DNA from: a virus
Lineage: Duplodnaviria; Heunggongvirae; Uroviricota; Caudoviricetes
IMG/VR virus record: IMGVR_UViG_3300045988_147305
Length of the DNA stretch: 64,000 bases
Strand: one strand, 5' to 3'
In this document: positions 24,161 to 24,998 of the stretch, one piece after another
Layout: each line of letters opens with the position of its first letter
Position numbering within the stretch: the stretch's first letter is position 1
Notes under the pieces: model-generated
Seen by the model: the letters and a program-made list of their open reading frames with translations, nothing else
What the model was told of the DNA's origin: nothing
Databases searched by the model: none
Position numbers and translations under genes: made by a program

Positions 24161-24181
24161 AAAAAAGCCCCGTTCAGGGGC
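24161..24181 (-). terminator. Rho-independent terminator of the inserted gene
   Basis: Hairpin GCCCCGTTCAGGGGC with T-run on the minus strand, just after the stop of the 24189-24998 gene. Confidence 0.6.
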
Positions 24182-24188
24182 ATCAGTG

Positions 24189-24998
24189 TTATTTGCTAAG
24201 AGCAGCGAATAATCGTTCGAAATCGATAGTATCTATAGCACGCGTAAGCGCCGGAAGTTCAGCCTCAAAGTACCCGTGTCGATCGTAAAAGAAGGGACCG
24301 AAGAGCGAGGCATGTTGGATTCTACTTCGCCCCAGCCCGGACACACAGTTAAGCCCATTACCGGCTAAAAGGCTAAAAAACTTCTCTGGATTATCGTGGT
24401 AAAGCTGGGAATCAATGGTGGCGGTTAACTCTTCCATAGGGAAGCACACCCGCCCTGTATCCCAGGGATATTTAGTCCGAAGCATAAACATTGCTTTCAG
24501 CAATTCACATTGAGCGCGGATCGCGTCCGGTTCATAGCCAGATATGGAGACATAAGCCACGTCCCTCATTCCTGCGTCATCTTTGAAAGTCACGATAGAA
24601 GTAACATCCAGCTCTTTTTCGAAAGAGCAAGCAGCATCTACTGGACGCTGAAGTAAATCATTCGACTTAATGCGCTCGAGAATCCCTCCCCACATATCAT
24701 TTAGATATTCGATATGAGCCAAAACCTTATCAAGACACTCTCGTGTAAACCATTCAGTATGCCCGCCACCGACGCTTTTCTCCCACGGCGCATTCCAGGG
24801 GAAAAAGGTTGCGTGTAAAGCCCGCTCAAGATTAACCATTGCCAAACGTGTACCACGATAGACCCGTGAAAGCGCAAAATCGGGACTCACTTGTAGCCCT
24901 TTAAACCGTGCCAATGGACCACATGAAATGCCGATTTTAAAAGTATCTCCGTTCTCTGGCACCAGAACGTAGAGGTAGTGTTGTTTCTCTTCTTGCAT
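24189..24998 (-). CDS. GIY-YIG superfamily (T5orf172-like) domain protein
   Basis: 269 aa; N-terminal HYLYVLVPENGDTFKIGIS...TEWF matches the T5orf172/GIY-YIG pattern; C-terminal part unrecognised. Confidence 0.55.
   Translation of the reverse strand: MQEEKQHYLYVLVPENGDTFKIGISCGPLARFKGLQVSPDFALSRVYRGTRLAMVNLERALHATFFPWNAPWEKSVGGGHTEWFTRECLDKVLAHIEYLNDMWGGILERIKSNDLLQRPVDAACSFEKELDVTSIVTFKDDAGMRDVAYVSISGYEPDAIRAQCELLKAMFMLRTKYPWDTGRVCFPMEELTATIDSQLYHDNPEKFFSLLAGNGLNCVSGLGRSRIQHASLFGPFFYDRHGYFEAELPALTRAIDTIDFERLFAALSK

Follow-up and report, generated by a model that had tools for sequence, protein, structure and literature searches.

A T5orf172-family nuclease gene at the par-proximal end of the exchanged p0111 replicon cassette of P1-like phage-plasmids

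Why does a P1-like phage-plasmid carry a nuclease gene between the incA iterons of its replicon and the promoter of its partition operon? The question is raised by a 64,000-nucleotide stretch of viral DNA (IMG/VR record IMGVR_UViG_3300045988_147305; Caudoviricetes), hereafter the window. On its minus strand, an intact open reading frame (ORF) with an ATG start (24189–24998), here called the T5orf172-WH gene, encodes a protein of 269 amino acids. A reading of the sequence alone (the sequence-only reading) had described such a gene, with its own terminator, between the incA iterons and the parA promoter, and this description was confirmed: the ORF is followed by a hairpin with a run of six T, and lies between incA-like iterons (25029–25292) and the par promoter Ppar (24075–24103). 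The same reading had taken the gene to be lodged inside an otherwise P1-type repA-incA-par cassette. This proved incorrect, since a whole 2249-bp p0111 cassette replaces the P1 block; hidden from a reading of the letters alone was that the repA and iterons of the window are not those of P1.

A Pfam search of the 269-residue protein detected T5orf172 (PF10544) at residues 8–85 (E = 6.9e-6, 26.9 bits; gathering cut-off, 20 bits), together with weaker, sub-threshold matches of MUG113 and Tox-URI2. The orthologues described below score 25–28 bits against T5orf172. Y10, K21, G23, R31, H62 and E82-W83-F84 are invariant in 11 family sequences, and the model of the N-terminal domain shows a GIY-YIG alpha/beta fold. 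By profile, motif residues and modelled fold, the protein is a member of the T5orf172 family in the GIY-YIG superfamily, and the invariance of the catalytic residues across the family indicates that catalysis is probably retained. NCBIfam and PADLOC models gave no match to the 269-residue protein, and its C-terminal ~165 residues are covered by no Pfam, NCBIfam or PADLOC family. The sequence-only reading, which had seen a T5orf172/GIY-YIG signature followed by an unrecognised C-terminus, was thus right on both halves. PHROG 2876 (phrog_2876), which has no assigned function, matched across the full length. We are highly confident that this is a two-domain protein, with a predicted N-terminal T5orf172/GIY-YIG nuclease domain whose catalytic residues are intact (amino acids 1–103; 24690–24998, minus strand) and a predicted C-terminal acidic winged-helix domain of ~165 amino acids without a sequence family (24192–24689, minus strand). 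The gene copies in MH422554, MH445380 and MH445381 are 100% identical to that of the window. RefSeq labels the gene "GIY-YIG nuclease family protein", and in JL22 it is the "unknown gp57".

Alignment of the window with P1 (NC_005856) gave 99.5% identity up to position 24122 and 97.5% from 26372 on. Between these points, 2249 bp of the window (24123–26371) replace 1491 bp of P1 that comprise the spacer, incA, repA and the incC iterons. The left junction (24122/24123), where the P1 homology stops, lies 19 bp upstream of the −35 element of Ppar, and the right junction (26371/26372) lies at the first origin iteron. The window RepA is only 41% identical in amino acids to P1 RepA, and the iterons differ from those of P1. 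The nuclease gene has no counterpart in P1, in which only a 213-bp spacer separates incA from Ppar, and no remnant of it was found in that spacer by blastn-short, tblastn or local alignment. Neither of the two outcomes that the sequence-only reading had named as fatal to it, conservation of the gene in P1-like genomes including P1 itself or an N-terminal motif that fails the family models, was observed. A simple insertion into the P1 replicon was rejected, since the P1 alignment shows the whole iteron-repA-incA block to be replaced. The 4.5 kb from repA through the gene to par share 98.8–99.4% nucleotide identity with RCS47, SJ46, JL22, phi456 and others. Judged by these alignments, the window replicon is of the p0111 type, in which the p0111 repA (RepB/Rep_3 family) replaces the IncY repA between P1 par and oriR/upfA; this replicon type of P1-like phage-plasmids was defined previously (PMC9603915).

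The composition of the cassette was examined in PLSDB. All 391 records with at least 80% of the cassette at ≥95% identity carry repA and the gene together; within this set, the nuclease gene constantly accompanies p0111 repA. With a left-junction probe, 394 of 547 matching records run on into the gene, and the sampled remaining records, which are of the IncY type, all stop exactly at base 24122; in all, the cassette limits are uniform in about 150 IncY-type plasmids. At the right junction, IncY-type records begin at query position 701, a few at 696. The gene-less IncY cassette has a frequency of about 28–55%. These data indicate that the exchanged unit consists of the origin iterons, repA, incA, the nuclease gene and its terminator, and we conclude with high confidence that P1-like phage-plasmids swap this cassette as a block by recombining within the flanks that are conserved, at Ppar and in the DnaA-box/GATC region. 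In Salmonella P1-like elements, 17 replicon-type changes on the core-gene tree were reported previously as "frequent switching" (PMC11165635). As a separate observation, IncY-type plasmids share 99.3–100% identity with the window in the par-side flank (23423–24122) and about 91–94% on the upfA side (within 25672–27071), indicating that the flank is strongly linked to replicon type at the origin end and not linked to it at the nuclease/par end.

How old is the association of the gene with its slot? By sequence the family is very narrow: apart from a single 90% cluster with 1241 member sequences, it includes some fragments and just one other protein, P0004, which is 44% identical. Further proteins, with matches confined to residues ~5–105, came from an exhaustive HMMER search, and the divergent lineages were recovered only via this protein search followed by look-up of the encoding contigs. 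P0004 (locus L003), P0010 (L004; attributed by NCBI to Salmonella enterica) and P0011 (L005) are each encoded between repA and parA of a P1-like element, and the four orthologues, including that of the window, align end to end. The repA-incA-gene-parA slot is thus occupied in four lineages with three RepA types, L005 combining a third RepA type with a third nuclease type. Among GTDB species representatives, a single locus, from Escherichia, was found, and viral and metagenome scans gave the E. coli-type allele only, apart from one weak TARA match (31% identity, L082).

A parallel exchange was found in a second backbone. L003 and L004 have nearly the same Salmonella-type backbone (gp23 99.5%, ParA 99.7%, ParB 98.2%, RdgC 97% identical), and their difference is confined to one roughly 2.2-kb block. 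In L003, this block encodes a RepA 84% identical to that of the window and an A-type nuclease; in L004, it contains a RepA 83% identical to that of P1, P1-type iterons and a B-type nuclease only 28% identical to the L003 nuclease. The L003/L004 junctions are at most about 20 bp away from those between the window and P1. The gene is missing at the incA-Ppar site of the Salmonella Wandsworth plasmid NZ_CP146848.1 (L083). Presence at this fixed site is therefore polymorphic, the gene being found in the window, L003, L004 and L005 and not in P1 and NZ_CP146848. Since homologues also fill this slot in three more P1-like lineages, all divergent, the gene is an old syntenic component and not a recent insertion, and its distribution indicates an old part of the exchanged unit that was lost at least twice (in P1 and NZ_CP146848). 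The sequence-only reading had proposed a selfish insert or an exclusion module; of this, the class of function is still the most plausible one, and the picture of an insert holds only in part.

Several further observations concern these loci. L083 (5097–5490) represents a divergent P1-like lineage with an IncY-like repA and ~70 bp between incA and the par flank, and its nucleotide identity is about 84% to L003/L004 and 72% to P1. The L005 homologue is also trailed by a similar terminator: the terminator and ~30 bp downstream are similar between the window (24130–24185) and L005 (5995–6060), though the proteins are only ~25% identical, and L003, whose protein is closer to that of the window, differs in the terminator region. 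In L084 (3431–5813; Logan SRR27197495), a distant member, P0021, overlaps the end of an HTH_36 Rep-like gene by 4 bp; a second T5orf172/MUG113 gene stands before this Rep-like gene, and a few genes upstream there is a ParA-like gene.

The nuclease gene evolves faster than its neighbours. Between the window and L003, the protein is 44% identical overall (63% in the N-terminal and 33% in the C-terminal domain), and identities are 89% for ParA, 84% for RepA, 80% for gp23, 67% for ParB and 57% for UpfB. Decay and the ratio of nonsynonymous to synonymous polymorphism (pN/pS) were analysed in 72 E. coli-type loci from IMG/VR, metagenomes and GTDB, all with the same genomic context, in which about 69 copies could be scored. 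Mean pairwise pN/pS was 0.32 for the nuclease gene (0.29 for the N-terminal and 0.34 for the C-terminal domain), and 0.023, 0.005 and 0.055 for repA, parA and parB, respectively. Intact copies numbered 59, and about 15% were broken: eight by premature stops at codons 68, 112 and 228, one by a frameshift and one by an insertion. One premature-stop copy lies on a 103,445-bp contig, presumed to be the inducible phage SJ46. At least five independent inactivations can be counted, and truncated or rearranged products form sizeable protein clusters (P0002, P0003 and P0005). No nonsense alleles were found in repA, parA or parB; repA and parA each gave one or two single-locus frameshift calls. These results indicate that purifying selection on the nuclease gene is real but weak, and that the gene is dispensable for maintenance and repeatedly lost. 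At least five inactivations in 72 loci, a pN/pS of 0.32 and two losses together correspond to the invasion-decay-loss cycle of homing endonuclease genes. In the insertion allele (L050, 5294–7058; IMGVR_UViG_2645727563_000002), the gene is broken after about codon 98 by a ~1.76-kb insert, possibly an insertion sequence element, and ~230 bp are deleted.

What the C-terminal domain might recognise was approached by structure prediction. An AlphaFold2 (AF2) model of the whole protein, built from an 11-sequence alignment, had a mean predicted local distance difference test score (pLDDT) of 80, and the C-terminal domain was examined in that model and in a separate prediction of the domain by itself (pLDDT 75, predicted template modelling score 0.70). 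The modelled domain is a winged helix carrying extra N-terminal elements. Its longest structural alignments were with Rep WH1 domains of iteron-plasmid initiators, generic winged helices (Bd2879, TcpK, JetB and ORC/Cdc6) were also among the matches, and its best BFVD Foldseek match was a plasmid replication initiator (E 3.8e-3, probability 0.99). The model thus suggests WH1 of iteron-plasmid initiators as the nearest fold, a modest likeness at the level of the fold only. A PDB sequence search with the C-terminal profile found nothing (best E 0.25), and the domain matches no known DNA-binding domain family of homing endonucleases. BLASTP against window RepA and P1 RepA gave no sequence signal (E > 3), and hhalign of the C-terminal profile against a five-RepA profile gave a probability of 0.2%; derivation of the C-terminal domain from RepA, as in a chimera of the Odn type, was rejected on these comparisons. 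The domain is acidic in all four orthologues (isoelectric point 5.05–5.24). Its few conserved residues in the four-protein alignment are mostly hydrophobic, which suggests a conserved core with a variable surface.

The gene is probably expressed together with the replicon. A consensus scan found no sigma-70 promoter between incA and the ATG, and a promoter of its own was rejected for this gene. No terminator was found between repA and the nuclease gene; the only strong one (GCCCC-TGAAC-GGGGC followed by T6, with a 5-bp GC stem and a 5-nt loop; 24181–24167, minus strand) begins 8 nt past the stop codon, where it probably terminates rep transcription and shields Ppar. A scan with the P1 consensus found no C1 operator within 3.7 kb of the gene, and control by the C1 repressor was rejected. 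The lack of a C1 operator, an own promoter and a repA-gene terminator points to probable read-through from PrepA across incA. The nuclease gene is probably read from the RepA-autoregulated repA promoter, with low-level expression in the plasmid-prophage state.

We tentatively favour the explanation that the gene encodes a free-standing, homing-endonuclease-like competition nuclease that is dispensable and linked to the replicon cassette. Its position at an exchange boundary, its linkage to a specificity module, its presence/absence pattern, the hypervariable domain and the recurrent decay together fit a competition nuclease best. Homing has indirect support from the location of the gene at a boundary that is exchanged again and again and from the frequent replicon switching of PMC11165635. 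The nuclease would be expressed in the plasmid-prophage state, probably by read-through from PrepA, and its hypervariable C-terminal domain would pick the target, either by binding DNA or by docking onto an iteron-bound Rep initiator. It would then cut a co-resident or incoming P1-like genome bearing a different cassette; the rival genome would be lost, or repaired off the resident copy, and both outcomes would favour the nuclease-bearing cassette. Where no rivals are met, the gene would decay as homing endonuclease genes do, because it is dispensable for replication, partition and phage growth. In L084, described above, a member of this nuclease family likewise accompanies a replication module, which is suggestive.

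Parts of this scheme resemble known systems. I-TevI has an N-terminal GIY-YIG catalytic domain and a separate C-terminal targeting domain, and the window protein likewise places its catalytic domain first and a separate domain behind it; unlike I-TevI, it belongs to the T5orf172 subfamily, has an acidic winged helix where I-TevI has a basic zinc-finger/helix-turn-helix region, and is not intron-encoded. Phage T5orf172 genes, of ICP1 and others, were described as homing endonuclease genes at the boundaries of exchanged blocks (PMC10448857). The window gene shares with them the PF10544 catalytic family, a site at an exchange boundary next to essential genes, presence/absence in otherwise collinear genomes, a modular, fast-changing non-catalytic half and decaying copies. 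It differs in that its nuclease domain is N-terminal (a reversed domain order, as in I-TevI), that the acidic winged helix stands in place of a CapR, DUF723 or DUF4397 zinc-finger DNA-binding domain, and that it resides in the plasmid replicon of a plasmid-prophage and not among lytic-phage core genes. Odn (ICP1 Gp88) joins a T5orf172 nuclease to a RepA_N domain and cuts the origin of a rival (PMC8263062). Like Odn, the window protein combines T5orf172 with a replication-initiator-like domain (Rep WH1-like, in our model), its gene stands beside iterons, and on the favoured explanation it would act in a conflict between replicons. In Odn, however, the targeting domain is 42% identical to the RepA_N of PLE, whereas in the window protein that domain is not homologous in sequence to the DNA-binding domain of an initiator and has a modest fold likeness only. 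The Rep families also differ (RepA_N in Odn, Rep_3/WH1-type in the window), and the domain order is opposite.

Some points weigh against a competition nuclease. Every step from the nuclease domain to the cutting of rival replicons is inferred. Homologous recombination in the conserved flanks, with selection to escape incompatibility, would suffice for cassette swapping, and the gene-less IncY cassette persists at the frequency given above. Relaxed constraint alone would explain the pN/pS of 0.32 and the frequent pseudogenes as well as conflict would. The acidity of the C-terminal domain is unusual for a sequence-specific DNA binder, so that protein docking fits at least as well as DNA binding. 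In addition, the N-terminal domains of the L004 and L005 nucleases are 62% identical and the adjacent RepAs only 43%; the histories of nuclease and repA are hence not identical, and this mismatch suggests that exchange within the cassette may also occur.

Defence against phages or other mobile genetic elements is another explanation, which we consider unlikely. The prophage-plasmid nuclease would cut incoming DNA (superinfection exclusion), with the C-terminal domain sensing or docking onto a component of the invader. Single-gene GIY-YIG defences exist, as in SNIPE (PMC13190303); a gene that evolves fast, varies in its C-terminal domain and is present in only some relatives looks like a typical defence gene; and the apparent lysogenic-state expression, with no C1 operator nearby, would suit such a role. 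More distant family members have Mrr/WYL, toxin-antitoxin or integrase genes around them, in mobile elements or islands, which also favours defence. SNIPE (PD-lambda-2; PMC13190303) is, like the window protein, a single protein that joins a GIY-YIG-type nuclease to a variable non-catalytic region giving specificity, but its nuclease is C-terminal and that of the window protein N-terminal; the window protein, with neither a transmembrane segment nor DUF4041, is not SNIPE. No PADLOC model matched, and a known defence system was rejected on this ground. Moreover, defence hotspots usually carry unrelated systems, whereas here one family keeps the slot in four lineages, always with the replicon, and the broken state of about 15% of the copies also speaks against defence.

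Three other explanations appear still less probable. In the first, the protein is an accessory or regulator of the replicon, a domesticated T5orf172 protein with little or no cleavage, whose WH1-like domain binds the cognate RepA or the iterons and tunes copy number, handcuffing or rep/par transcription. The fixed position of the gene right after incA, with an iteron 30 bp from its start codon and probable co-transcription with repA, agrees with such a role. Gene type also tracks replicon type in both backbone pairs compared, and the C-terminal domain is both similar to the dimerisation domain WH1 of Rep and, unlike the basic Rep proteins, acidic. A domesticated T5orf172 regulator has a precedent in CapR, a repressor in PLE (10.1101/2020.11.28.402263). 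We nevertheless doubt this role: the strictly conserved catalytic residues argue for retained catalysis, P1 and NZ_CP146848 replicate without the dispensable gene and many p0111 elements carry nonsense alleles of it, and a partner of the conserved RepA (84% identical between the window and L003) is not expected to diverge to 33% identity. The second, a plasmid-borne counterpart of Odn, would make the protein an initiator-mimicking nuclease, an incompatibility weapon that drives IncY/p0111 switching by break-induced gene conversion of the cassette; its WH1-like domain would dock on a rival or iteron-bound Rep or on the origin and direct the GIY-YIG cut. We give this little credence; were it true, a homing endonuclease would carry a whole replicon along with it. 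The third, a functionless hitch-hiker, the slowly decaying remnant of an old homing endonuclease gene kept by linkage to the essential replicon, would account for the relaxed selection (pN/pS 0.32 against ≤0.055 in the neighbours), the recurring nonsense, frameshift and insertion alleles with their truncated protein clusters, and the loss from P1 and NZ_CP146848, but is improbable, given that about 85% of copies are intact, that each domain has a pN/pS far lower than 1 (0.29 and 0.34), and that an open frame with its catalytic residues and both domains survives at 25–44% identity in four lineages, which requires long-term purifying selection.

The gene itself, its GIY-YIG annotation and the IncY/p0111 replacement were already known. 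The window carries the p0111 replicon of RCS47, SJ46 and JL22, and the literature on that replicon treats the gene as an unnamed passenger (PMC9603915, PMC11165635). New to our knowledge are the anatomy of the cassette with the nuclease as its constant par-proximal end, the conserved place of the gene in four lineages that have three types of RepA, a second backbone in which a parallel swap has matching limits, the speed of evolution with its pattern of decay, and the architecture of an N-terminal nuclease with a C-terminal acidic WH1-like domain, which defines a new arrangement for T5orf172 proteins. Widespread in E. coli and Salmonella, P1-like phage-plasmids carry resistance genes and have two replicon types that often switch. 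We know of no mechanism proposed so far for the switching between IncY and p0111. A nuclease gene at the edge of the swapped block is a testable candidate for driving or policing replicon replacement and the competition between plasmid-prophages, and it carries the view of nuclease genes as markers of exchange boundaries over from lytic phages to plasmid replicons. Even if the gene were only a decaying passenger, there would remain a gain in annotation, the p0111 cassette consisting of iterons, repA, incA and the nuclease gene.

The remaining features of the locus are as follows. The incA-like iterons at 25029–25292 have the core TCGCGTATAGTCAAC, with six good and about two degenerate copies in both orientations, and the last ends 30 bp before the ATG of the nuclease gene. 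The p0111-type repA (25291–26175, minus strand) encodes 294 amino acids from the ATG of MPEENKG, in agreement with the RCS47 annotation, and five origin (incC-like) iterons with 21-bp spacing lie upstream of it (26251–26360). Beyond the right junction, the DnaA box and the GATC-rich half of oriR are common to the window and P1. On the other side of the cassette, Ppar (minus strand; −35 at 24098–24103, −10 at 24075–24080) is identical to that of P1 and precedes the P1-type genes parA (22824–24020, minus strand; ParA 99.7% identical to P1) and parB (21806–22807, minus strand; ParB 100% identical to P1). The P1 C1 operator consensus ATTGCTCTAATAAATTT has eleven matches in the window with up to 3 mismatches, against 0.25 expected by chance; these include 32226–32242, 28704–28720 and 11583–11599, and none is near the nuclease gene. 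Finally, upfA is a pseudogene in the window (26510–26901, minus strand): the ORF at 26767–26901 encodes the first 29 amino acids of P1 UpfA before a frameshift, and the C-terminal ~35 amino acids are found in another frame at 26510–26629.

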